From the NCBI GenBank assembly GCA_037189525.1, contig JBBCJC010000002.1, positions 1,088,001 through 1,152,000 of the forward strand: a stretch of 64,000 nt of DNA, written 5' to 3'. Positions 2,895-14,130 of this stretch are shown piece after piece; position 1 is the first letter of the stretch, and every line of letters begins with the position of its first letter. This stretch comes from Gemmatimonadales bacterium. GTDB taxonomy: Bacteria; Gemmatimonadota; Gemmatimonadetes; Gemmatimonadales; GWC2-71-9. The notes beneath the pieces are model-generated. The model ran no database searches. It was not told where the DNA came from and saw only the letters and a program-made list of their open reading frames with translations. The position numbers and the translations under genes were made by a program.

Positions 2895-5800
2895 GTGCCA
2901 ATGTCTCCCGCCAACGGGATGCCGGACCTCGGTCCGGTGCCTCTCACCGAAGCGCAGTCCGGTCTCTGGTATGCGCAGCGACTGGACGCCGAGAATCCCG
3001 TTTTTAATACGGCGCAGGCGGTCGAACTGATCGGCCCGCTCGACCTGGCGGCGTTTCAGCTGGCCGTCGACGGCGCGCTGGGTGAGGCCGATGCCCTGGC
3101 GGTTCGGATCGTCGAGGCGCCCGATGGCCCGGAGCAGACGGTCGACGAAAGCGCCCGTGCCGCGCTCTGTATCGTCGATCTGGCGGATGAGCCCGATCCT
3201 CCCGGGGCCGCCCGGGAGTGGATCCAGCGCGATCTGGAGCGGCCGGTCGATCTCGCGGTCGACGCCCCCGTGGCCGAGGTCCTCTTCGTGCTCGGCGCCG
3301 AGCGGCACCTCTGGTATCAGCGGATCCATCATCTCGTCATCGACGGGTACGGCACGGCGCTGCTCACCAGGCGCATCGCCGACCGTTATCGCGCCCATCT
3401 GACCGGGCACGAGGCGGGGCCGGCCCTCCGTCCCTTTGCCGATCTGCTCGAGGCCGATCGCATCTATCGGACATCCGACAAGCGTGAGGTCGACCGCCGG
3501 TTCTGGTTGTCGGAGCTGGCCGATCTGCCCGCTGTTCGTGGTTTGGCGGAGGGACCGGCGGTCACGGCGAGATACTACCGTCGCCATGTGCGGGATTGCC
3601 CGGACGGGTCTGCCGCTGCGGTACGATCCCTGGCGGAGGCCGCGCGGGTGCCTTGGCCGGATGTACTGGTCGCGCTGATTGGTGCGTACGTGCTGCGCCA
3701 CACCGACGAGCCCGAAACCACCGTCGGCGTTGCCACGATGAACCGGCTCGGCACGCCGGCCGCCGCGATTCCGGCGATGGTCATGAACATCCTTCCGCTT
3801 CGGGTAACAGTCGACGAGGAGCAGAGCGTCGCGGGATTTGCCGCGGGTGTTTCGGCGCGGCTCCGTCGCGCCCGGGTCCACGGGCGCTATCGGAGCGAGC
3901 AGTTGCGCCGGGATTTGGGGCTGTTGGGCGGCGGGCGGCGTCTGTATGGTCCGCTGATCAACATCCTGCCGTTCGATGAGACCCCGGAGTTTCCGGGAGT
4001 CGAGGCCTCGCTCGAGGTGTTGGCGACCGGGCCGGTCGATGATCTCACCATCAGCGTTCGCGCGGATGCCAACGCCGATGGACTGCGGCTCGAACTGGAC
4101 GGCAATCCGATCCTGTACACTGCCGCTGACCTGGCCGCCCACGCCGATCGCCTCGAAGCGTTCCTGGTCGCTGCGCTCAACGCAACGACGCTGGCCGAGG
4201 TGCCTACGCTGACGGCCGACGAGCGGAAACGCTGGGTCGAGGACATCAACGCGACCGCGCATCCCGTGCCGGATGTGACGCTCGCGGCGTTGATCGAACA
4301 AACCATGAAGGCTGTGCCCGAGGCGGTTGCGGTCGAGGGCGACGGCCAGGTGCTCGACTACCGTGCTCTCGACCAGCAGAGCAGTGCGGTTGCCGGACGT
4401 CTGATGGCGCTGGGCGTGCGCCGTGGCGATATCGTAGCGGTGGCAATACCGCGGTCTGTCGACCTGGTGGTGACGCTCGTGGCCATCGTCCGGATGGGTG
4501 CGGCGTATCTTCCGCTCGATCCGGACCATCCGCCCGATCGCCTGCTCCGCATCATCGGACTGGCCCGCCCGGCTGCGCTCGCCGTATCGTCGGTGCTACC
4601 GGTCGATTGGCCCGAGAGCCTGCCCGTGCTGCGGGTGGACCAGGTCGAATCGGCGGGAGAACGTTGGATCGGAGAAGCGCCTGCGCCGGACGATGCGGCG
4701 TACGTGATCTTCACCTCGGGCTCGACCGGAGAGCCCAAGGGCGTCGTGGTGGAGCATCGCGCCATCGTGAACCGGCTCGAGTGGATGCGCACTCACTACG
4801 GCGTGACCGGGAGCGACCGGTTCCTGCAGAAGACGCCCGCCACGTTCGATGTGTCGGTCTGGGAGTTTTTCCTGCCGCTGCTCGCCGGGGCAACCCTGGT
4901 GGTGGCGCCGCCGGATGCGCACAAGGACCCCGCCTGGCTGGCCCGCCTGGTCCGCATGGCCGATATCAGCACGATACACTTCGTTCCCTCGATGCTCGCC
5001 GAGTTTCTGGCGGAGCCGTCGGCGCTGGGTGTACCGCTCCAGAGAGTTTTCGTCAGCGGGGAGGCCTTGTCGGAGGCGCTCCGCGATCGTTGCCATGCGG
5101 TGCTGGAGGCGGAGCTGCACAACCTCTACGGACCGACCGAAGCCGCGGTCGACGTGAGCTGGTGGAATGCCTCGCGGGGCGACCGCTCCTCGCCCGTCCC
5201 GATCGGGTTTCCGGTCTGGAATACTCGGCTCTATGTCCTCGACCGCCGGTTGCGTCCGGTGCCGCCGGGGGTGCGAGGAGAGCTCTACCTCGGCGGGGTG
5301 CAGCTCGCGCGCGGGTATCTCGGGCGTCCGGACCTGACCGCCGAGCGTTTCGTCACCGATCCATATGGGGCGCCGGGTGATCGGCTCTATCGGACCGGCG
5401 ATGTCGCCACGCTGCGACCCGATGGTGCCATCCTCTATCTGGGCCGAGCCGACTTCCAGATCAAGATCCGGGGCCAGCGCGTCGAACTCGGCGAGATCGA
5501 GGCCGCGTTACTGGCCGAACCCGGCGTGACGCAAGCGGTGGTCATCGTGCGCGAGGATGCGCCGGGCGATCAGCGCCTGATCGGGTATCTGATCGGTGGC
5601 GGCTCGCCGATCGACGTGGTCGCCGTACGGGAGCGTCTGCAGCGGACCCTTCCGGAGCACATGGTCCCCTCGATTCTGATCGAGTTGATCCGCTGGCCGC
5701 TGACTGCGAGCGGCAAGCTCGATCGGCGCGCCCTGCCCGTGCCGGAGCGCCGCACTCTGGCGCCGCCGGAGCGTCCGCTGCGCACCGACACGGAGCAACG

Positions 5801-6857
5801 CCTGGCCGAATTGTTTACCCAGGTGCTCGCCGCCGGCGTCGAATCGGCCGCAGCCGATTTCTTCGATCTCGGCGGGCACTCATTGACCGGTGCGCGGCTG
5901 ATGCGACTGGTTCGCGAGACCTGGCCCTGCGAGATCGGCCTCGGAACCCTCTTTGCGGACCCGACGGTCGCAGGCCTTGCTGCGCAGATCGATCTGGCCG
6001 TGGCGGGCCAGACCGGCGGCGAAGGTCTGGAGCGGATCCTCTCGCTGGCCCGCTCTGCCCCCCCGGACCGGCCGCCCGTCTTCTGCATCCATCCGGCAGG
6101 TGGAATTGCCTGGTGCTACGGAGGCCTGGCCCGGGCGCTTGGTGCCGAGCGGCAGGTCTATGGGGTCCAGGCCGGCGTCCTCGATCCGGCCGCGGGTTTG
6201 CCTGATCGTCTCGACGAGATGGCGGCCGACTATGTCGACCGGATTCGGGCGCTCTCCGCCGGTGGTCCCTTCCATCTGGTCGGATGGTCGGTCGGCGGCA
6301 TCGTGGCGCAGGCCATGGCGGTGCGGCTGCAGGCGCTTGGTGAGCAGGTCGGCGTGCTGGCATTGCTCGATGCGTACCCGGCCGACCGCTGGCACGGGAT
6401 GGCGGAACCGGATGCGGCGGCGCCGCTTCGGGCGCTGCTCCTGATTGCGGGCTACGATCCGGCCGACCATCCGGACCTCGAAATGACCCGGGAGAGCGTG
6501 ATCCGCTTTCTCCGGGCCGGGGGCAGCCCGCTGGGCGGCCTGAGTGCCCGCGGTCTGAGCGGTGTCGTCCGGGCGGTGGAGAACAACAATCGCCTGGTTC
6601 GCAGCCATTGGCACCGCCGCTTCAACGGAACGGCGCTGCACTTTTTCGCGACCCTGGAGCATGGTCCGGGAGGCGCATCGCCGGCGGAGTGGGAGCCCTA
6701 TGTGAGCACCCTGGAGCGATACGACCTGCCGGTGCGCCACGCCCATATGGTCGGACCGGAGGCGGTCGGCAGGATCGTGCCGGTGCTCCGGCGAGCACTC
6801 GAACGGGCCGAATCGCTGGTTTGTGCGGAGCAGGGGAGGAGTATCGCAGATGCGTGA
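2895..6857 (+). CDS. entF: Single-module NRPS C-A-T-TE, EntF-like, probably serine-activating
   Basis: C domain HHLVIDG; A domain FTSGSTGEPKG, YGPTE, YRTGD, SGKLDR; T domain FFDLGGHSL; TE GWSVGG. The specificity residues read by hand give about DVWHFSLVDK, the serine code. Confidence 0.9.
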   Translation: MPMSPANGMPDLGPVPLTEAQSGLWYAQRLDAENPVFNTAQAVELIGPLDLAAFQLAVDGALGEADALAVRIVEAPDGPEQTVDESARAALCIVDLADEPDPPGAAREWIQRDLERPVDLAVDAPVAEVLFVLGAERHLWYQRIHHLVIDGYGTALLTRRIADRYRAHLTGHEAGPALRPFADLLEADRIYRTSDKREVDRRFWLSELADLPAVRGLAEGPAVTARYYRRHVRDCPDGSAAAVRSLAEAARVPWPDVLVALIGAYVLRHTDEPETTVGVATMNRLGTPAAAIPAMVMNILPLRVTVDEEQSVAGFAAGVSARLRRARVHGRYRSEQLRRDLGLLGGGRRLYGPLINILPFDETPEFPGVEASLEVLATGPVDDLTISVRADANADGLRLELDGNPILYTAADLAAHADRLEAFLVAALNATTLAEVPTLTADERKRWVEDINATAHPVPDVTLAALIEQTMKAVPEAVAVEGDGQVLDYRALDQQSSAVAGRLMALGVRRGDIVAVAIPRSVDLVVTLVAIVRMGAAYLPLDPDHPPDRLLRIIGLARPAALAVSSVLPVDWPESLPVLRVDQVESAGERWIGEAPAPDDAAYVIFTSGSTGEPKGVVVEHRAIVNRLEWMRTHYGVTGSDRFLQKTPATFDVSVWEFFLPLLAGATLVVAPPDAHKDPAWLARLVRMADISTIHFVPSMLAEFLAEPSALGVPLQRVFVSGEALSEALRDRCHAVLEAELHNLYGPTEAAVDVSWWNASRGDRSSPVPIGFPVWNTRLYVLDRRLRPVPPGVRGELYLGGVQLARGYLGRPDLTAERFVTDPYGAPGDRLYRTGDVATLRPDGAILYLGRADFQIKIRGQRVELGEIEAALLAEPGVTQAVVIVREDAPGDQRLIGYLIGGGSPIDVVAVRERLQRTLPEHMVPSILIELIRWPLTASGKLDRRALPVPERRTLAPPERPLRTDTEQRLAELFTQVLAAGVESAAADFFDLGGHSLTGARLMRLVRETWPCEIGLGTLFADPTVAGLAAQIDLAVAGQTGGEGLERILSLARSAPPDRPPVFCIHPAGGIAWCYGGLARALGAERQVYGVQAGVLDPAAGLPDRLDEMAADYVDRIRALSAGGPFHLVGWSVGGIVAQAMAVRLQALGEQVGVLALLDAYPADRWHGMAEPDAAAPLRALLLIAGYDPADHPDLEMTRESVIRFLRAGGSPLGGLSARGLSGVVRAVENNNRLVRSHWHRRFNGTALHFFATLEHGPGGASPAEWEPYVSTLERYDLPVRHAHMVGPEAVGRIVPVLRRALERAESLVCAEQGRSIADA

Positions 6858-7632
6858 ATCCGGGATTGCCGGAAAGATTGCCCTCGTCACGGGCGCTGCG
6901 GGCGGCGTGGGCCTGGCCGTAGTGGCCGGTCTGGTCGACGAGGGAGCGCGCGTGGTGGCAATCGATCGCGACCCGGAAGCGCTTGCTGCGCTATCCGCGC
7001 GCTGGCCCGATGCGGCGTCGGTCCGAAGCGTCCAGCTCGACATTACCGATGCGGCGGCGGTTGACGCCCTGGTGGCGGAAATCGAATCCGATTGGGGACC
7101 GATCGACATCGGGATCAACGTGGCGGGCGTGCTGCACATCGCGCCGGTGGTCGACACGGATGAGACCGAGTGGGATCGGGTGTTCGACGTCAATGCGCGC
7201 GCCGTCTTCGTGGTCTCGCGCGCGCTTGCCCGCGTCATGAAGCCGAGAGCACGCGGGTGTCTCGTGACGGTCAGCTCCAACGCGGCCGGAATTCCGCGCC
7301 AGGGGATGGCGGCCTACGCCGCGTCGAAGGCAGCCGCCACCATGTTTACCCGGTGTCTGGGTCTCGAGCTCGCGTCGTACGGGATCCGCTGCAACATCGT
7401 CGCGCCTGGATCGACCCGGACGCAGATGCAGGATGCGATGTGGGCCCGCGGGACCACGTTGCAGTCGGTGCTCGACGGATCGCTCGAGAGCTATCGAACC
7501 GGGATTCCCCTCCGCAAGATCGCCGAGCCGCGCGATGTGGCGGATGCGGTGTTGTTCCTCGTCTCGGACCGCGCCGGGCATATCACCATGGCCGATCTCT
7601 ACGTCGACGGTGGCGCGACGTTGCGTGCATAA
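6850..7632 (+). CDS. entA: 2,3-dihydro-2,3-dihydroxybenzoate dehydrogenase
   Basis: SDR TGAAGGVG, VSSNAAGIPR, YAASK, CLGLELA, GIPLRKIA, YVDGGATL; GGGGAGGA SD before ATG 6850. Confidence 0.92.
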   Translation: MRESGIAGKIALVTGAAGGVGLAVVAGLVDEGARVVAIDRDPEALAALSARWPDAASVRSVQLDITDAAAVDALVAEIESDWGPIDIGINVAGVLHIAPVVDTDETEWDRVFDVNARAVFVVSRALARVMKPRARGCLVTVSSNAAGIPRQGMAAYAASKAAATMFTRCLGLELASYGIRCNIVAPGSTRTQMQDAMWARGTTLQSVLDGSLESYRTGIPLRKIAEPRDVADAVLFLVSDRAGHITMADLYVDGGATLRA

Positions 7633-7683
7633 AGTAAGGTGGTTCTCGTGAACACGGTGGGTTCCTGGAAGGATGGAGTCGGG

Positions 7684-8733
7684 GTGAAGGCGGAAGCATC
7701 GGGCCGGACACGGGAGGTCGAGGCGCTCGTCAGTCCGGATGAGCTGCTTGCCTCGCTGCCCCGGTCACCCGAGACGGCCGCGTTCGTCGAGACCTCGCGC
7801 GACACGATCCGAGAGATCATCCATGGCCGCGATCGGCGGCTCCTGGTCGTCGTCGGCCCCTGCTCGATCCATGATGTCGATGCCGCGTTGGAGTACGGCC
7901 GCTGGCTGGCCGATCTGCGGGCGCGCTGGCAGCACGAACTCATGCTCGTAATGCGGGTCTATGTCGAAAAACCCCGGACCCGGGTGGGGTGGAAGGGACT
8001 CATCAACGATCCCGATCTCACCGGAACCGGTCGGATCAATCTCGGCCTTCGGGCGGCTCGGCAGCTGTTCGTGGAACTCAACCGTCTCCGGCTGCCCGTC
8101 GCGACGGAGTTCCTCGACATGATCTCCCCGCAGTACCTGGGCGACCTGGTGGCGTGGACGGCTGTGGGCGCGCGTACGACCGAGAGCCAGCTGCACCGGC
8201 AGATGGTGTCCGGTCTACCGATCCCGACGGGGTTCAAGAACACCACCGACGGCAACGTCGAAGCGGCCGTCAACGCCATTCTCTCCGCGGCAACCGAACA
8301 TCACTTCGTTTCGCTCACGGGCGCCGGAACCGCCGCGCTCGTTACCACAGCGGGGAACCCTGACTGCCATGTCGTGCTCCGCGGCGGCCGGGTGCCGAAC
8401 TATGATGCGGCCGCGGTCGATGCCGCGTGCCATACGCTCGTGCGGCACGGGCTCGGACCCCGGATCATGGTGGATTGCAGTCACGGCAACGCCGCCGGCG
8501 ATGCGCAGCGCCAGCTCGTGGTGGCAGCCGATGTTGCCCGCCAGGTTGCATCCGGGTCGAGTCGTGTGCTCGGCGTCATGCTGGAGAGCAATCTCGTGGC
8601 AGGTGCGCAGCGGTTGGTGCCCGGTGAGGCGCTGCGGTTCGGCCAGAGTATCACCGACCCCTGCCTTGGGCTCAACGATACCGCGCTTGCGTTGGAGGGC
8701 CTGGCTCGGGCGGTTCGCCAGGCCCGGGGGTGA
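7684..8733 (+). CDS. DAHP synthase, class I-alpha (AroF/G/H family)
   Basis: GPCSIHD, RVYVEKPRT.VGWKGLINDP, GARTTESQLHR, DCSHGN, GQSITDPC; GGAG precedes GTG 7684 (the ORF is open from 7639). Confidence 0.93.
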   Translation: MKAEASGRTREVEALVSPDELLASLPRSPETAAFVETSRDTIREIIHGRDRRLLVVVGPCSIHDVDAALEYGRWLADLRARWQHELMLVMRVYVEKPRTRVGWKGLINDPDLTGTGRINLGLRAARQLFVELNRLRLPVATEFLDMISPQYLGDLVAWTAVGARTTESQLHRQMVSGLPIPTGFKNTTDGNVEAAVNAILSAATEHHFVSLTGAGTAALVTTAGNPDCHVVLRGGRVPNYDAAAVDAACHTLVRHGLGPRIMVDCSHGNAAGDAQRQLVVAADVARQVASGSSRVLGVMLESNLVAGAQRLVPGEALRFGQSITDPCLGLNDTALALEGLARAVRQARG

Positions 8734-8745
8734 TCGGGCGGAGCG

Positions 8746-10011
8746 TCAGGCGAACCGGTCTTCGGGATAGATCGCGGCCGAGGTGAGCAGGCCGGCCACC
8801 AGCGATACCGCGGTCAGGACCATACTGAAGGCGGTATCGATTCCCGCGACGACCTGGCTATCGAGCAGCGCGGAAATGCTCCGGAAGCCGACGCTGCCGG
8901 GCACCAGGGTCAGGAGCCCCGGCACCAGCGTAATGGCTGCCGGCCGCCGGGTGATTCGATAGAAGAGATTGCTGCCCAACCCGACCGCCAGCGCCCCCAC
9001 GAAAACGCCCATCTCCGGTCCGAGCACCGATCCGCCCAGCCGGGTGGAGACGAATGCGATCACCGCCGACAGCAGGATCCAGCCGATGTCTCGCCGGTCG
9101 GCGCGCAGCAGCAGCGAGAACGCAATCGCAATCACACCCAGCGCCAGCCAGTTGACGATCACCGGCATCGGCGCCGGCACCACCGCCGCCACCGGACCGA
9201 CCAGCAACACGGCAACCTTGTGGCCGAGCGCCACACCGAATCCGATCCCGATGAAGGTCATGAACGCGCCCGCCATGCGGGTGGTGCCGGCGGTGAGGTG
9301 CGAGGTGGCCAACTCGGTAATGGCCGTGGTCAGCGTGAGGCCCGGGATCAGGACGATCAACCCGGCCAGTGTCGCGAGCCAGACCGAATAGCCCCCGATC
9401 AGCGCACCAAGCAGCGTCATGATCGTCGAGCAGAGGAAAGCCGCCAGGAACTCGTAGACCCGCGCCACATGGGGCAGCCGGGCCGCCGTCGTGGCTAGTG
9501 CGCCGATCCCGAGCCCGCCCAGGGCGGCCATGCCCATTTCCGGCCACGCGCCGCCCAGGAATCGCGCGGCGGCGGCAGAAGCGAGTCCGTGGCCGACGAT
9601 GATGAAAAGTGGATTCGGATCGGGAACGACCGAGAGCGCCATCAGGCGCTTCATGCCCTCGGCCACCTGCACCTCACCCGACAGTACTCCGCGCGCGACC
9701 TCGGTGACCCGGGCCAACTGGCCGAGATTCTGAGGGCGCGGCCCCGTCCGCATCATATAGGTCGATTGCGTGATGCCCGACCCGAAGGACGCAAAGATCG
9801 AGGTGGGTGTCACGAAGTACTGTCCGGTCAGGCCGAGCCGATCGCTCATCGCGGTAAGGGCATCTTCCAGCCGGTGGGTCGAATACCCGGCGGCCTGCAG
9901 CGCCAGCGCCAGGTCCATGATGAACGGGATTCGGGCATCGGCGTTGATCCGATACTCCCCGGTACTGAGACGGTGTTCGCCTGTTCTGACACGGAATTCG
10001 CCGGTGGCCAT
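8746..10011 (-). CDS. Threonine/serine exporter (ThrE family)
   Basis: Soluble N-terminus (GYSTHRLE, PTSIF), then about 10 TM segments with IPGLTL..AI.EL..SHL.AG and LVPG motifs. Confidence 0.85.
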   Translation of the reverse strand: MATGEFRVRTGEHRLSTGEYRINADARIPFIMDLALALQAAGYSTHRLEDALTAMSDRLGLTGQYFVTPTSIFASFGSGITQSTYMMRTGPRPQNLGQLARVTEVARGVLSGEVQVAEGMKRLMALSVVPDPNPLFIIVGHGLASAAAARFLGGAWPEMGMAALGGLGIGALATTAARLPHVARVYEFLAAFLCSTIMTLLGALIGGYSVWLATLAGLIVLIPGLTLTTAITELATSHLTAGTTRMAGAFMTFIGIGFGVALGHKVAVLLVGPVAAVVPAPMPVIVNWLALGVIAIAFSLLLRADRRDIGWILLSAVIAFVSTRLGGSVLGPEMGVFVGALAVGLGSNLFYRITRRPAAITLVPGLLTLVPGSVGFRSISALLDSQVVAGIDTAFSMVLTAVSLVAGLLTSAAIYPEDRFA

Positions 10012-10036
10012 GGCCGGAAAATAATCACGGTCATTG

Positions 10037-10065
10037 TTGATTTTCCGGTATCATTGGGGTATCGT
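10037..10065 (+). promoter_or_regulatory. Putative sigma70 promoter giving a leaderless transcript
   Basis: TTGATT (10037-42), 17 bp spacer, TATCGT (10060-65); ATG at 10073 lies at the expected start site with no SD. Confidence 0.55.
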
Positions 10066-10072
10066 CTTTTTG

Positions 10073-10435
10073 ATGCGGTCCTGTCTCAACCCCCTCGCGC
10101 GGCTGCGCCGGTCCCTCGGTCCGGTTGCCGTAACCCTGCTCCTCTTCTTCGGAGTGGCGCAGGCGGTTGCGGCGTGGCATGTCGCGCGCGGGACAGACCA
10201 GGATCGTGTCTCGGTTGCGGCCGCCGACGTGTCGACGCCTTCGGGCGGGGGGCATGTCGACGACGGCTGTGCGCTCTGCTCGACGCCGGTGCAGCCAACC
10301 TTTGCGGCCGTTCTGATCTCGATCGTCGTCGAGATGGCGCCGCGCCGGATGGCTCCGCTCGAACCCACTCTCCTTCCCGCATCTCCCATCGTACTCGGCG
10401 CCAGCGGACCTCGCGCGCCACCAGCCGTTTCCTGA
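10073..10435 (+). CDS. DUF2946-like / CruR-like leader peptide (signal anchor, CxxC, C-terminal RAPP)
   Basis: 120 aa: hydrophobic N-terminus, HVDDGCALC, ends GPRAPPAVS; directly upstream of a TonB-dependent receptor. Confidence 0.78.
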   Translation: MRSCLNPLARLRRSLGPVAVTLLLFFGVAQAVAAWHVARGTDQDRVSVAAADVSTPSGGGHVDDGCALCSTPVQPTFAAVLISIVVEMAPRRMAPLEPTLLPASPIVLGASGPRAPPAVS

Positions 10436-10569
10436 TTTCACGCTTGCGATAGTCTCGACTGCTCCAGTCGAGGCACTGATGTGTCGCCGGTGGGACACGT
10501 CGTTGGATCGTTCGAGACGTCTGTGAACCGCGCGTGGTCGCGGCTGCCGGCGTCCAGAGGAAGTCGGAT

Positions 10570-12852
10570 ATGGTTGTTCGTTGGTTCGTCCTTATCGGTC
10601 TGCTGCTTGCCGGCAACCGTGAGCTGGCCGCGCAGTCGCCCAATACCGGCACGCTGCGCGGTACCGTCGTCGCGGCCGATGGCGGACCCCTCCAGGCGTC
10701 GCTGATCCGGGTGCTCGACCGGCATCTGACCGAAACGACGCACGCCGACGGCTCGTTCCTGTTGCCGGCGGTTCCGATTGGTCCGCAGCGGGTGGCCATC
10801 ACGGCCATCGGGTATCAGGCGTTCTTCACCACCGTCACCATCACCCCCGGCGATACCGTCCGGCTCGATGTCACCCTCACGCCGGCGGTCCTGCGGCTCG
10901 AGGAGATCGTGACCACCGGCACCATCAGTGCCCGGGCGCGGAGCGAGGTGGTGAGTCCGACCTCGGTCGTGGCTGGCGCGGCGCTCGATCGCCAGCTGGA
11001 TGCGACGGTTGCGGCCTCGCTCAGGCACGAACCCGGCGTGGCGGCAGGCGGTCTGGGGCCGGCCACCTCCCAGCCGGTGATTCGCGGGCTGAGCGGCGAT
11101 CGGGTCGTGATGCTGCAGGACGGAATTCGGCCGGGTGACCTCGCCTCGACCTCGGCCGACCATGCGGTGACCGTGGATCCGTTGACGGCCCAGCGGATCG
11201 AGGTGGTCCGCGGCCCGATGTCGCTGCTCTACGGATCGAGCGCGCTCGGCGGGGTGGTCAACGTCATTCGGGAAGACGTGCCCGCTTCTCGGCCCGATGC
11301 CCTTCACGGCGCCGTCTCCGCCCAGGCCAGTTCGGTCAATCGGGGCGCCACGCTGGGCGGGTATGCCGTGTCGGGCCTCGGTCCGCTGGTGGTGCGCGGC
11401 GAGGGCACCATCCGCCGCGCCGGCGACACCCGGACCCCGAAAGGCCGCCTCACCAACACGGACGTGGCCACCCTCGACCTGTCCGGCGGCGCCTCGTACG
11501 TTGCGCCTAACGGTTATGCCGGGTTGTCGTACCGCTACTTCGACAACGACTACGGTATTCCGGGCGGGTTCGTCGGCGGGCACGCCGAGGGTGTCGACGT
11601 GGCGATGCAGCGGCACACGGTCCGCTCGACGTTCGATCTGCATCCGACCAGCGATACCTGGGAGAGCATTCGGGCCAACATCGGCGGCACCTTCTATCGC
11701 CATACCGAGTATGAATCCAGCGGGGCGGTGGGAACTCGCTTCCGCCAATCGTTCCTGAACGGCACGGTCACCGCCCGGCATCGCGGCGTGCTTGGCGCGA
11801 GCAGCGGCGCCATCGGGGTGGGTGGGCACTACCGTTCGATCCGGACCGGTGGCACGCTGCGCACCCCGGCGACGGCGGACTACTCGCTGTCGGCGTTTGC
11901 CGTGCAGGAGTACGGCGAGGGCCCGCTCCGGCTCCAGGCAGGATTGCGTTTCGACTTTGCGCACTACGATCCGCGGGAGCGTTCCGTCTTTCAGATCGAA
12001 GGCGAGCAGGTCGAGGCCGTGTCGCGATCGTTCGGCGCCTTTTCCGGATCGGTCGGCGCCATATACGATCTTGGCGACGGGCTGGCCATCGGCGGAAGCG
12101 TGGCCCGCGCGTATCGCACGCCCGATTTCAACGAGTTGTACTCCAACGGTCCGCACCTGGCGGCCAACTCCTACGACGTCGGCGACCCGCGTCTGGTCGA
12201 GGAAACGGGGCTGGGCCTCGACGGCTTCGTGCGACTGGATCGGGCGTCGGTGCGGGTCGAGGTCGCCGCGTTCCGCAACCAGCTCGATAACTACATCTTC
12301 CCGTCGAGCCGCGGCCGGGCCGTCATCGGGCGACAGGGCGGCCGTCCGCTCTTCCAGTTTACCAATGAGGCCGCGGTCTTCCAGGGCTTCGAAGGATCCT
12401 TCAGTGTCGGCCTGTCCCGCCGGCTGGTGTTCGATGCGACGGTCTCGTATGTCGCGGCGAAATTCACCTCCGATCGCGCCCCGATTCCGATCATCAGTCT
12501 CGATCCGCCCGACACCTCGTTCGTGGCCGCATCGGACCATCCTCCGCTCATCCCGCCACTCTTCGGCAACGCCGAGTTGCGCTACGAGCGGCCGCAGTAC
12601 TTCGCGGGCGCCGGGATGCGGTGGACGGCGCGCCAGTCGCGGCTCGGCGATTTCGAAACCGAAACGGCCGGGTCCGTGGTCGGCGAACTGCACGCGGGCG
12701 TCCGGCTCCTGATCGGCGGCCAGTTCCACACGCTGACGCTCCGGGTCGACAACCTGACCAATGCGGAGTACTACGATCACCTGTCCCGCATCAAGGACAT
12801 CGAGCCCCAGCCGGGGCGCAATGTCAGTTTGCTCTATCGCTTCACGTTCTGA
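10570..12852 (+). CDS. TonB-dependent receptor, ZnuD-like metal uptake type, with N-terminal carboxypeptidase-regulatory-like domain
   Basis: Signal peptide; plug motifs PVIRGL, DLASTSADHAVTVDP, RIEVVRGPMSLLYGSSALGGVVNV; ELYSNGPHLA; C-terminal aromatic (YRFTF); SD AGAGGA. Confidence 0.92.
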   Translation: MVVRWFVLIGLLLAGNRELAAQSPNTGTLRGTVVAADGGPLQASLIRVLDRHLTETTHADGSFLLPAVPIGPQRVAITAIGYQAFFTTVTITPGDTVRLDVTLTPAVLRLEEIVTTGTISARARSEVVSPTSVVAGAALDRQLDATVAASLRHEPGVAAGGLGPATSQPVIRGLSGDRVVMLQDGIRPGDLASTSADHAVTVDPLTAQRIEVVRGPMSLLYGSSALGGVVNVIREDVPASRPDALHGAVSAQASSVNRGATLGGYAVSGLGPLVVRGEGTIRRAGDTRTPKGRLTNTDVATLDLSGGASYVAPNGYAGLSYRYFDNDYGIPGGFVGGHAEGVDVAMQRHTVRSTFDLHPTSDTWESIRANIGGTFYRHTEYESSGAVGTRFRQSFLNGTVTARHRGVLGASSGAIGVGGHYRSIRTGGTLRTPATADYSLSAFAVQEYGEGPLRLQAGLRFDFAHYDPRERSVFQIEGEQVEAVSRSFGAFSGSVGAIYDLGDGLAIGGSVARAYRTPDFNELYSNGPHLAANSYDVGDPRLVEETGLGLDGFVRLDRASVRVEVAAFRNQLDNYIFPSSRGRAVIGRQGGRPLFQFTNEAAVFQGFEGSFSVGLSRRLVFDATVSYVAAKFTSDRAPIPIISLDPPDTSFVAASDHPPLIPPLFGNAELRYERPQYFAGAGMRWTARQSRLGDFETETAGSVVGELHAGVRLLIGGQFHTLTLRVDNLTNAEYYDHLSRIKDIEPQPGRNVSLLYRFTF

Positions 12853-12914
12853 TGGAGAGTACCTACTGATCCGGCCCGACCGGGGCGGATCATCGATCCT
12901 GAAGGAGGCTTGTC

Positions 12915-13355
12915 ATGGCAATTGCAGCGTTGGTTCGTCGCGGTCTCGCCGCGAGTGCGTTGGTGGGGATGGCGTTCGTCGCCGGCTGCGGAGACGAAGA
13001 TGATGATCACGATCACGAGCCCGAAGTGGAGACCATGCGGGTCGTCATCGGCGGCACCACGGTGAATTTCTCGGGGGCCACCTGCTCACCGTCGGTCTCC
13101 TCGGTCACCATCCCGACAGCCGGGGCGGCCGTCACCGCGTCCTTCCTGGATGATGATGGCGTCGTGCTGGATCTTCACGATGACGAATTCCAGCTCAACG
13201 TGGAGCCGACGGGCCGGTTCACCCGGTCCGGCGCGTTCAGCGGGAACCTGAGCGGTGGCGCGGCCGGTGCTGCCAACATCAGCTTTGCGCTGTATCATCT
13301 CGAGGAACAGCATACCGATTTCGGGCCTTGCACCGTCTCGGTCGTCGTCCAATAA
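12915..13355 (+). CDS. His/acid-rich lipoprotein, probable metal-binding partner of the receptor
   Basis: Lipobox FVAGC followed by DEDDDHDHEPE; C-terminal YHLEEQHTDF; strong SD AAGGAGG. Confidence 0.8.
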   Translation: MAIAALVRRGLAASALVGMAFVAGCGDEDDDHDHEPEVETMRVVIGGTTVNFSGATCSPSVSSVTIPTAGAAVTASFLDDDGVVLDLHDDEFQLNVEPTGRFTRSGAFSGNLSGGAAGAANISFALYHLEEQHTDFGPCTVSVVVQ

Positions 13356-13374
13356 CACGAATCGAGTCGATCGG

Positions 13375-13417
13375 AACCGGCGGGGGCTTTTCTCGAGCCC
13401 CCGCCGGTTTCACATTT
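13375..13417 (+). terminator. Intrinsic terminator-like hairpin
   Basis: 14-bp perfect stem AACCGGCGGGGGCT/AGCCCCCGCCGGTT followed by TCACATTT. Confidence 0.7.
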
Positions 13418-13422
13418 GGGGG

Positions 13423-14130
13423 ATGACAGCTCCCGTTGCTCTCGTTACCGGCGCCACCGAAGGGATCGGACGCGCCATCGCCGAGGCACTCTGCCAAGGC
13501 GGATACTCGGTGGCCATTACGGCCCGCACCGAATCCCGGCTCCGCGAAGCCCTCGCCGAACTGACCGCGGACGGCCACCGGGCCACCGGCTTTGCCGCGG
13601 ACGTCTCCGACCCGGCGGCGGTTGCCCGTCTGGTGGAACACACCGAACGTGAACTCGGCCCGGTCGACGTTCTGGTCAACAATGCCGGCATCGGCATCCT
13701 CGGTCCGATCGACGATTTTTCGCTCGAAGAATGGGACCGGACCTTTGCCGTCAACGTGCGGAGCCTGTTCCTGCTGACCAAGGCGGTGCTGCCCGGTATG
13801 CGCGCCAAGCAACAAGGCGACATCGTCAATATCGCGAGTCTGGCCGGGAAGAACGGCCTCGCCCACGGCGTCGCGTACAGCGCTTCCAAGCATGCGGTGG
13901 TGGGCTTTGGCCGGTCGCTGATGGCGGAAGTGCGGAAGGACGGCATTCGGGTGGTGACGGTCTGCCCGGGCAGCGTCGATACCGCGCTGCTTCGCGATCA
14001 GAACACCCTCAAGCCCAACTTCGATCGGATTCTGCGTCCCGCGGATGTGGCGGCGGCGGTGGTCGACGCGCTGCAGCTGCCGCGCCGCGCCTTGATCAAC
14101 GAAATCGAGATTCGCCCGGCCAACCCCTGA
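13423..14130 (+). CDS. SDR-family oxidoreductase
   Basis: TGATEGIG, NNAG, YSASK, CPGSVDT. Confidence 0.9.
   Translation: MTAPVALVTGATEGIGRAIAEALCQGGYSVAITARTESRLREALAELTADGHRATGFAADVSDPAAVARLVEHTERELGPVDVLVNNAGIGILGPIDDFSLEEWDRTFAVNVRSLFLLTKAVLPGMRAKQQGDIVNIASLAGKNGLAHGVAYSASKHAVVGFGRSLMAEVRKDGIRVVTVCPGSVDTALLRDQNTLKPNFDRILRPADVAAAVVDALQLPRRALINEIEIRPANP

Follow-up and report, generated by a model that had tools for sequence, protein, structure and literature searches.

A His/Cys-RAPP leader peptide before a ZnuD-like receptor gene in Gemmatimonadales and its predicted long-range pairing with the receptor ribosome-binding site

How might a short peptide control a receptor gene that starts well over 100 nt beyond its stop codon, and to which metal would such a switch respond? 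The question is raised by a 64,000-nt stretch of DNA from a Gemmatimonadales bacterium (assembly GCA_037189525.1, contig JBBCJC010000002.1, positions 1,088,001 to 1,152,000 of the forward strand; hereafter the window, to which positions refer unless prefixed otherwise), in which a 120-codon open reading frame (ORF) ending in the ribosome arrest motif RAPP precedes a gene for a TonB-dependent receptor resembling the zinc-uptake receptor ZnuD. A first-pass annotation had proposed that the logic of the Bordetella leader CruR operates here and that the 3' end of the leader sequesters the Shine-Dalgarno sequence (SD) and start codon of the receptor gene. The ORF, its CALC and RAPP motifs, the 134-nt spacer between leader stop and receptor ATG, the SD, the ATG and the receptor with its S..SADHA plug (STSADHA in full) were all confirmed in place. 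Our analysis shows that the leader belongs to a widespread family, in which pairing between leader ends and distant ribosome-binding sites (RBSs) is supported, and suggests a stall-controlled switch, for which zinc is our best guess as the sensed metal.

The leader peptide and its family

The leader (10073-10435, + strand) begins with a basic N-terminus and a hydrophobic segment at about residues 16-35, as read directly from the sequence, and continues with His61, CALC (10268-10279, residues 66-69), a 44-residue linker, RAPP (10412-10423, residues 114-117) and a final AVS before the stop codon. His61 and the cysteines form a predicted metal-binding patch, H61-x4-C66-A-L-C69 (10253-10279), and RAPP would act by analogy with CruR, where the ribosome arrests once Pro3 of the motif occupies the P site and Pro4 the A site (PMC12992588). 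A structure model predicted a helix at residues 7-40 and left the remainder largely unstructured (predicted template modelling score 0.37, too poor for a fold search). An upstream TTG at 10034 was rejected as the start codon in favour of ATG 10073 on the basis of promoter spacing and the orthologues.

Homologous receptor loci were collected from a 301-genome phylum search, a 401-genome family search and three named records, and the sample was enlarged by 60 regions hand-picked for diversity among the 150 matches listed; the three receptor relatives in the named records were all from Gemmatimonadota. Before curation, a filter flagged an R[AGS]PP ORF upstream in 71 of 104 matched loci; removal of two duplicates, one wrong ORF and two loci without upstream DNA left 68 of 100, and three more came from a profile search and an ORF listing, bringing the count to 71 leader-headed loci among 100 distinct receptor loci. 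With a family profile, leaders were detected in 91 of the 151 Gemmatimonadota genomes sampled, which are related to one another, and 1784 representative proteins matched at E≤0.001. A metagenome scan for close orthologues gave two weak matches, which were set aside.

Within 47 non-redundant leaders, C66, R114, P116 and P117 are invariant and H61 is nearly so. A His lies no more than eight residues ahead of the first Cys in 46 of them, and 27 carry a further H-hydrophobic-E upstream that is missing from this leader. The distance from CxxC to RAPP, 44 residues here, spans 42-48 across the set and 43-47 in 45 of the 47 leaders, and one to six residues follow RAPP in all of them, a range partly fixed by the search filter. 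CxxC is complete in 34 of the 47, the second Cys being absent from 13. Thus, the claim of a CruR-like CxxC and RAPP leader in a distant phylum stands, and that of CxxC as an invariant sensor does not. Likewise, the suspected link to DUF2946 (PF11162) fell short of membership: because the leader scores 14 bits (E 0.089), below the gathering cut-off of 23.7, we file it as DUF2946-like. The DUF2946 model matched 30 of the 47 relatives at E≤0.5 (best 1.8e-6), and 16% of the members of an Atlas neighbour cluster at 0.96 are DUF2946 proteins.

The same genome contains 44 stop-to-stop frames that end in R[AGS]PP and 49 that end in A[AGS]PP. A correctly spaced His..CxxC occurs in two of the 44, compared to none of the 49 and none of 97 control-motif frames, and both of the frames that carry it head metal-type transport genes. 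The leader ORF is real, and chance is excluded.

Transcription of the leader is predicted to depend on a sigma70-type promoter (TTGATT at 10037-10042, 17 nt, TATCGT at 10060-10065), and the leader has no SD. The layout TTGATT-17-TATCGT-7-ATG recurs in loci L001, L005 and L048, and TANNNT stands 6-7 nt before 23 of the candidate ATGs of 77 leaders, compared to about one per position elsewhere. Since the promoter ends 7 nt before the leader ATG, the transcript is probably leaderless. Genome-wide, TANNNT likewise peaks at 6 nt before ATG (58 versus ~11 per position in a crude gene set), which suggests a sizeable class of leaderless genes. A terminator-like site flagged at 10046-10064 overlaps the promoter and is taken as chance (one found, 2.2 expected). 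The first-pass annotation had left room for a separate promoter in the spacer; none was found there by a consensus scan, though the scan also overlooked the leader promoter. No AT-rich gapped palindrome was shared by the 77 leader upstream regions (best 3, shuffles 1-2), and an operator box was rejected, a TGAT-N8-ATCA repeat being present only in three close orthologues and not more widely.

Pairing between leader ends and ribosome-binding sites

Across 47 non-redundant loci, leader ends formed more stable duplexes with their own RBS than with non-cognate ones (-12.8 versus -10.3 kcal/mol, permutation p=5e-5), and three control windows in the same loci were flat (p=0.29-0.82). The covariation signal was limited to RAPP+6..+27, with its peak at RAPP+9 to +27, and to -30..-3 relative to the downstream start. 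As the usual ribosome footprint is ~15 nt, the first of these regions is the zone that would lie under a ribosome stalled with Pro3 in the P site. With this predicted footprint masked, opening the RBS cost on average 3.1 kcal/mol less in 43 loci (the 47 without four whose spacers exceed 200 nt), compared to a difference of 0.0 in 129 chimeric controls. A held-out set, collected as 75 new loci with the leader profile and reduced to 50 that share <50% identity among themselves and with the first set, gave z -9.7 and -7.8, with controls at z -0.5 to -1.4. Furthermore, the signal was significant inside each of four downstream-gene classes, and it persisted when the recurrent TCC-stop loci were taken out (z -7.8) and when only spacers ≥120 nt were kept (z -3.6), the typical spacer in the family being 80-190 nt; 115 ordinary gene pairs from the same genome gave z +0.4. 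Because leader ends fit their own RBSs far better than those of others, these comparisons support long-range leader-end/RBS pairing at the level of the family.

At this locus, the candidate anti-RBS strand consists of the last codons, the stop and a few bases beyond (10420-10439), predicted to lie beneath a stalled ribosome, and its target (10558-10575) comprises the receptor SD, AGGAAG at 10558-10563, and the ATG at 10570-10572. The helix drawn in the first-pass annotation, which joins 10420-10433 with 10558-10574, has a duplex energy of -15.0 kcal/mol and costs 2.4-10.6 kcal/mol to force across eight folding windows. A shifted register, 10423-10439 with 10560-10575, is the minimum-energy fold of 10418-10578, a segment that starts at the RAPP prolines, and costs 0.1-6.5 kcal/mol to enforce. 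In 14 of the 17 TCC-stop loci the TCC finds its partner within the SD zone, as in the register of the annotation; comparison therefore favours the core of the annotated pairing and energy favours the shifted one, and either register is possible at this locus. Both spacer hairpins of the annotation were recovered in predicted folds. Hairpin 1 (10452-10474, 10 bp) keeps all 10 pairs in three of three orthologous sequences with two two-sided changes (100% of cells paired), and hairpin 2 (10478-10501, 8 bp) has 96% of cells paired and one two-sided change in these three sequences only; the shifted register has 80% of cells paired and no two-sided change. The fold of 10400-10590 as a whole reached z of only -1.7.

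A number of results weigh against a long-range helix as the working structure of this particular sequence, and some against the family signal as well. The annotated helix had a pair probability of ≤0.04 in all seven unmasked folding windows that contain both strands, which together with the cost of forcing it rules out this exact 13-pair helix as the dominant fold here. Leader-end/RBS pairs were absent, isolated end points excepted, from folding windows that start ≥12 nt before RAPP, and longer ones favoured other folds, some of which pair the SD with C-rich sequence at 10365-10390. When the predicted ribosome footprint was masked, the RBS became cheaper to open in 9 of 12 folding windows and costlier in three. 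Taken by itself the duplex of this locus was not above chance, 15% of RBSs and 39% of leader ends from other loci pairing as well, and in these models the locus is among the weakest helix cases of the family. Only 32 of 97 individual loci fall in the best 10%; downstream receptor starts were picked by a heuristic rule that is blind to the leader and uses the anti-SD motif, with one locus dropped for want of a credible start; the loci are hand-picked and related, so that kin are not independent; and all folding is prediction. Thus, the long-range anti-SD interaction proposed in the annotation is supported at the family level, and the exact helix it drew is not the favoured fold here. Two orthologues with receptor identity of 91-93% formed a leader-end/RBS stem in most folding windows, and the duplex of the closest orthologue, L001, reached -18.5 kcal/mol and was equalled by no foreign leader. 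The orthologues L054, L053, L042 and L001 carry long perfect helices and are better test beds than this locus.

A proposed switch, its metal and its rivals

As the best explanation we propose that stalling at RAPP and long-range masking of the RBS form a zinc-linked, relieved-stall switch for the receptor, a reading to which, taken whole, we give an even chance. Its steps are not independent and differ in strength: that the leader is stall-controlled we hold with high confidence, release rather than prolongation of the stall by metal seems quite likely, RBS masking is probably a real output at this locus, and zinc is modestly favoured as the main signal. A leaderless transcript would start at the leader ATG, and a translating ribosome would arrest at RAPP, by analogy with CruR. 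From general knowledge of footprints, the stalled ribosome would cover ~10405-10435 and keep the anti-RBS strand off the RBS, so that the receptor would be on, probably under zinc scarcity. With the ribosome gone, the spacer hairpins would bring the strands together and a multibranch stem would close over the SD and AUG. The 44-residue linker would place the nascent His/Cys patch just outside the exit tunnel; metal bound there would end the stall, and the untranslated mRNA would then probably also be shortened by Rho loading on 10353-10402.

The last of these steps could instead be the principal one. In this alternative, CruR-type output dominates: stalled and queued ribosomes would shield the Rho site at 10353-10402, release by metal would lead to a Rho stop in the spacer, and the anti-SD helix would be secondary or decayed. 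CruR acts via Rho-dependent termination, and its rut region has a similar position (PMC9426467). At 10353-10402, C minus G amounts to 19 in 50 nt, a value reached by 0.03% of genome windows, and over the 20 codons that lead up to RAPP, G occupies one of 17 four-fold degenerate third positions, compared to 44% in the receptor gene; among the 47 loci this is both the strongest C>G window and the strongest third-position G depletion. Because CruR works through such a C-rich site, Rho may share or dominate control here, and the weakness of the helix in this sequence points the same way. Family-wide, third-position G is 35% versus 43-46% (p ~7e-4), a mild trend, and the depletion is milder in two orthologues (2/14 and 4/14), which have robust helices; moreover, the family helix signal is much stronger, and the C-rich stretch is itself predicted to pair with the SD in long folding windows. 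We therefore regard dominance of Rho as unlikely, if the most serious of the alternatives, and it is compatible with the masking switch rather than exclusive of it. The rho gene is present in the genome, which has two Rho-like genes (C2:93727-94839 and 1310810-1312045); one is over the family cut-off, and the second, with the longer open frame, scores 451 of 509 bits. The claim that the same logic as in CruR operates here is not exact, because the output of CruR is Rho-dependent termination and SD masking is that of CutF and SecM.

Next to be weighed is the metal. The receptor (760 residues, 10570-12852, + strand, with an N-terminal carboxypeptidase-regulatory-like domain; GTG 10534 was rejected as its start in favour of ATG 10570 on the basis of the SD and signal peptide) has ZnuD (NF038289) as its best NCBIfam match (E 3e-51), and because its 174.9 bits lie below the cut-off of 950 we file it as ZnuD-like. 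The best match of solved structure is ZnuD as well (PDB 4RDR, E 4e-36; OprC ~1e-8). In a sequence alignment, D197, H198, E380 and H529 correspond to D99, H100, E340 and H499, the zinc ligands of ZnuD (PMC4557270). The receptor has no Cys and five Met. This D-H-E-H tetrad is kept in 65 of 65 full-length leader-headed receptors, and no leader was found within ~1 kb upstream of 11 paralogues with A-H-E-D in its place (L079, L081, L084-L086, L088, L092-L096), which form a receptor group of their own.

Of the 75 new leaders, 38 stand before TonB receptor genes, 23 before genes for unnamed proteins of ~420 residues (one truncated), 11 before genes for outer-membrane efflux proteins and three before others. 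No PCuAC, Sco, CopC, YcnI or copper-oxidase family was found among the 66 of these 75 first downstream genes that were scanned, one TonB class (16 loci) standing outside the substrate typing. AztC/AztB-like ATP-binding cassette (ABC) genes follow the ~420-residue class in six of six operons tested. Loci L205, L206, L208, L215, L217 and L220 are examples of this class, in which one relative has a weak Porin_O_P match; the ~420-residue protein may be an undescribed outer-membrane metal channel. The efflux operons contain a CusA/CzcA-family resistance-nodulation-division pump in six of six tested, and the one compared was nearer ZneA than CusA. At L209-L214, leaders head operons for an outer-membrane factor, a CzcB-like and a CzcA-like protein, often beside a leader-headed TonB receptor.

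A second leader in this genome (L114:697-6876, C2 ~1208500-1214700, outside the window) combines His/CAVC with RSPP, has an AT-rich promoter region with TTGACA and heads genes for an ABC ATPase, two DUF3526 ABC-2 permeases and a DUF5916 protein. It has no BLAST similarity to the first leader and scores 10.7 bits on the family profile; a duplex between its stop codon region and the RBS of the ATPase gene is predicted, though not above chance. By its layout the operon is like znuGHI of Caulobacter, which is Zur-repressed (PMC4176598), a link resting on that shared layout and on DUF3526 matches in Caulobacter alone among 14 controls; no literature linking DUF3526 with zinc was found. The genome has three Fur-family genes, two of them in tandem (L112:1008-1875, C2 ~1232500-1233400).

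Several observations count against the proposed switch. The His-rich loop-3 cluster of ZnuD, HSHEYDDCHAD, aligns with GGFVGGHAEG and is thus absent here (some receptor relatives bear His/Glu-rich insertions at loop 3). Among 86 full-length D-H-E-H receptors, 18 have no leader in the flank covered. The Azt/Znu-like matches lie far below cut-off, and manganese-family models match too. The efflux operons share the stall-equals-on RNA layout (nine loci, z -2.7), and no difference in motif or spacing was visible between import and efflux leaders. Because the same leader layout heads both, one ligand logic cannot fit uptake and efflux: either leaders differ in polarity, as CruR and CutF do, or metal level by itself is not the signal. 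Altogether, the gene context of the family targets favours a metal other than copper, as the annotation had supposed, and the aligned ligands and best matches bear out its ZnuD-like receptor; zinc is our best guess, judged from sequence, and not a result. Going further, we offer as a tentative, and on balance doubtful, extension that Gemmatimonadota run a zinc regulon on leaderless His/Cys-RAPP nascent-peptide sensors (~60% of sampled genomes) rather than on operator boxes. The sensors would read zinc at the ribosome exit tunnel and control ZnuD-like receptors, Azt/Znu-like ABC importers and ZneA/CzcA-like exporters, using one scaffold and one long-range helix, from the leader stop region to the next RBS, whose polarity would be reversed between import and export operons.

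Alternatively, and with a rather low probability, an identical stall and anti-RBS mechanism might sense copper, nickel, cobalt or manganese, or metal might prolong the stall as in CutF. Asp/His/Glu sites bind other divalent ions too, and efflux operons bear the same leader. Both characterised relatives, CruR and CutF, sense copper, and His-rich CutF-like clusters precede nickel/cobalt genes (PMC9973294). The ZnuD tetrad in every leader-headed receptor, the position of OprC far below ZnuD, the lack of copper families among the scanned targets and the dispensable second Cys all speak against this possibility. Improbable, too, is a SecM-like leader that monitors export or periplasmic disulfide status and is released by translocon pulling: it would explain the conserved hydrophobic N-terminal segment, the fact that nearly all first downstream genes encode exported envelope proteins and the identical layout on uptake and efflux operons, but not the His/Cys patch at a fixed distance of 42-48 residues. 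Against it stand also the targets that could be typed, which handle metals, and the cytoplasmic ABC ATPase gene behind one leader of this genome, and export-stress logic suits sec genes and not metal transporters. That there is no regulation, the ORF or the pairing being chance in GC-rich DNA, is very improbable, as the many RAPP-type frames of the genome and the modest z of the local fold are outweighed by the His..CxxC counts, the spread of the family and the covariation tests, and for the ORF this is largely refuted.

Neighbouring genes and comparison with known systems

Downstream of the receptor lies a third gene (12915-13355, + strand) for a 146-residue predicted lipoprotein of an unnamed family, in which VAGC, presumably a lipobox, is followed by DEDDDHDHE. 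No convincing Pfam or NCBIfam match was found for it; its Atlas neighbours are unnamed Gemmatimonadota clusters, and tblastn found homologues in nine other distinct receptor loci or fragments. Similar-looking lipoproteins come after many homologous receptors and may be metal-capturing partners of the receptor. A 14-bp hairpin with a weak U tail (13375-13409, + strand) is the probable operon terminator. Rfam covariance models gave no riboswitch or cis-regulatory match in 9900-13500, only chance miRNA matches on this 3' hairpin, and a riboswitch reading of the locus was dismissed for lack of an Rfam match. The third gene, the leaderless promoter and the rut-like C-rich stretch are additions to the anatomy first annotated. 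On the other side of the leader, a divergent ThrE-family exporter gene (8746-10011, - strand) shares with it a 61-nt AT-rich promoter region and, with TATTTT 6 nt before its first ATG, may be leaderless too. Farther upstream, beyond thrE, genes for an NRPS-like (nonribosomal peptide synthetase) protein of 1320 residues, a short-chain dehydrogenase and a DAHP-synthase-like protein share one orientation in 2895-8733; inspected by eye, they could form a siderophore-type cluster.

So far, copper is the only metal for which sensing by arrest leaders has been characterised (CruR, CutF). Small, signal-bearing RAPP/RGPP ORFs located before TonB receptors have been catalogued across Gram-negative phyla, and this leader very likely falls within that class, to which no mechanism or metal is assigned in the main text of PMC12992588; that text has no mention of stem-loop, Shine, secondary structure, zinc or Gemmatimonad, and its appendix may list Gemmatimonadota leaders. 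The locus and its family supply a mechanism and a metal, as predictions, for RAPP leaders before TonB receptors. In a literature search that reached few subscription papers, neither a zinc-linked arrest leader nor a co-varying long-range leader-end/RBS helix was found, and nothing relevant to a zinc arrest peptide beyond CutF. If the zinc-regulon reading is true, these leaders would provide the first case of a zinc-responsive arrest peptide, doing with protein the work of a zinc riboswitch, which PMC9426467 calls undescribed. The occurrence of importers and exporters under one leader type also lets one ask what sets release versus prolonging of the stall by metal.

ZnuD of Neisseria meningitidis resembles the receptor in being its best solved-structure and NCBIfam match and in its four high-affinity ligands, and differs by a score of 175 against a cut-off of 950, by the extra N-terminal domain here and by the missing His-rich loop-3 cluster. 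ZnuD is controlled by Zur, whereas no shared operator palindrome was found before the leaders. SecM and MifM share with the proposed switch a stalled ribosome that holds an SD-masking stem open, but they sense translocon pulling, control sec or yidC genes and have no His/Cys metal patch.

CutF, the exported Cys/His leader of cutFOG in Rhodobacter capsulatus, stalls in the presence of copper (PMC9973294; bioRxiv 10.1101/2025.02.05.636593) and, as proposed here, its stall opens a stem that masks the SD of the following gene. CutF has CxxxC, a proline run, an intergenic stem-loop and a copper oxidase target, whereas here there is CxxC and a TonB receptor, and the anti-RBS strand is formed by the last codons of the leader itself across a spacer of typically 80-190 nt. 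Stem unfolding by a stalled ribosome was expected to be limited to short spacers, so that an SD-masking helix over such distances would have been thought unlikely, and specificity other than for copper has been suggested for His-rich CutF-like clusters (PMC9973294).

The closest likeness is to CruR (Bp2923, DUF2946), the leader of cruR-bfrG(crtA)-bp2921 in Bordetella pertussis, which senses copper and heads copper genes (PMC9426467). Both leaders are the first gene before a TonB-dependent importer and share a hydrophobic N-terminus, three residues after RAPP, a C>G bubble, a similar CxxC-RAPP spacing (44 here versus 45) and spacer (134 versus 162 nt), and, as predicted here, a stall that means on. 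The copper-gene context of CruR is not matched here, the receptor being closest to ZnuD and the targets looking zinc-related; furthermore, the second Cys is often lost, the score lies below the DUF2946 cut-off, and, where CruR acts by Rho termination, with no anti-SD helix described for it in the sections covered, the family here shows a co-varying leader-end/RBS helix. In its peptide anatomy and its place in the operon the leader resembles CruR; in its predicted RNA output it resembles CutF and SecM.

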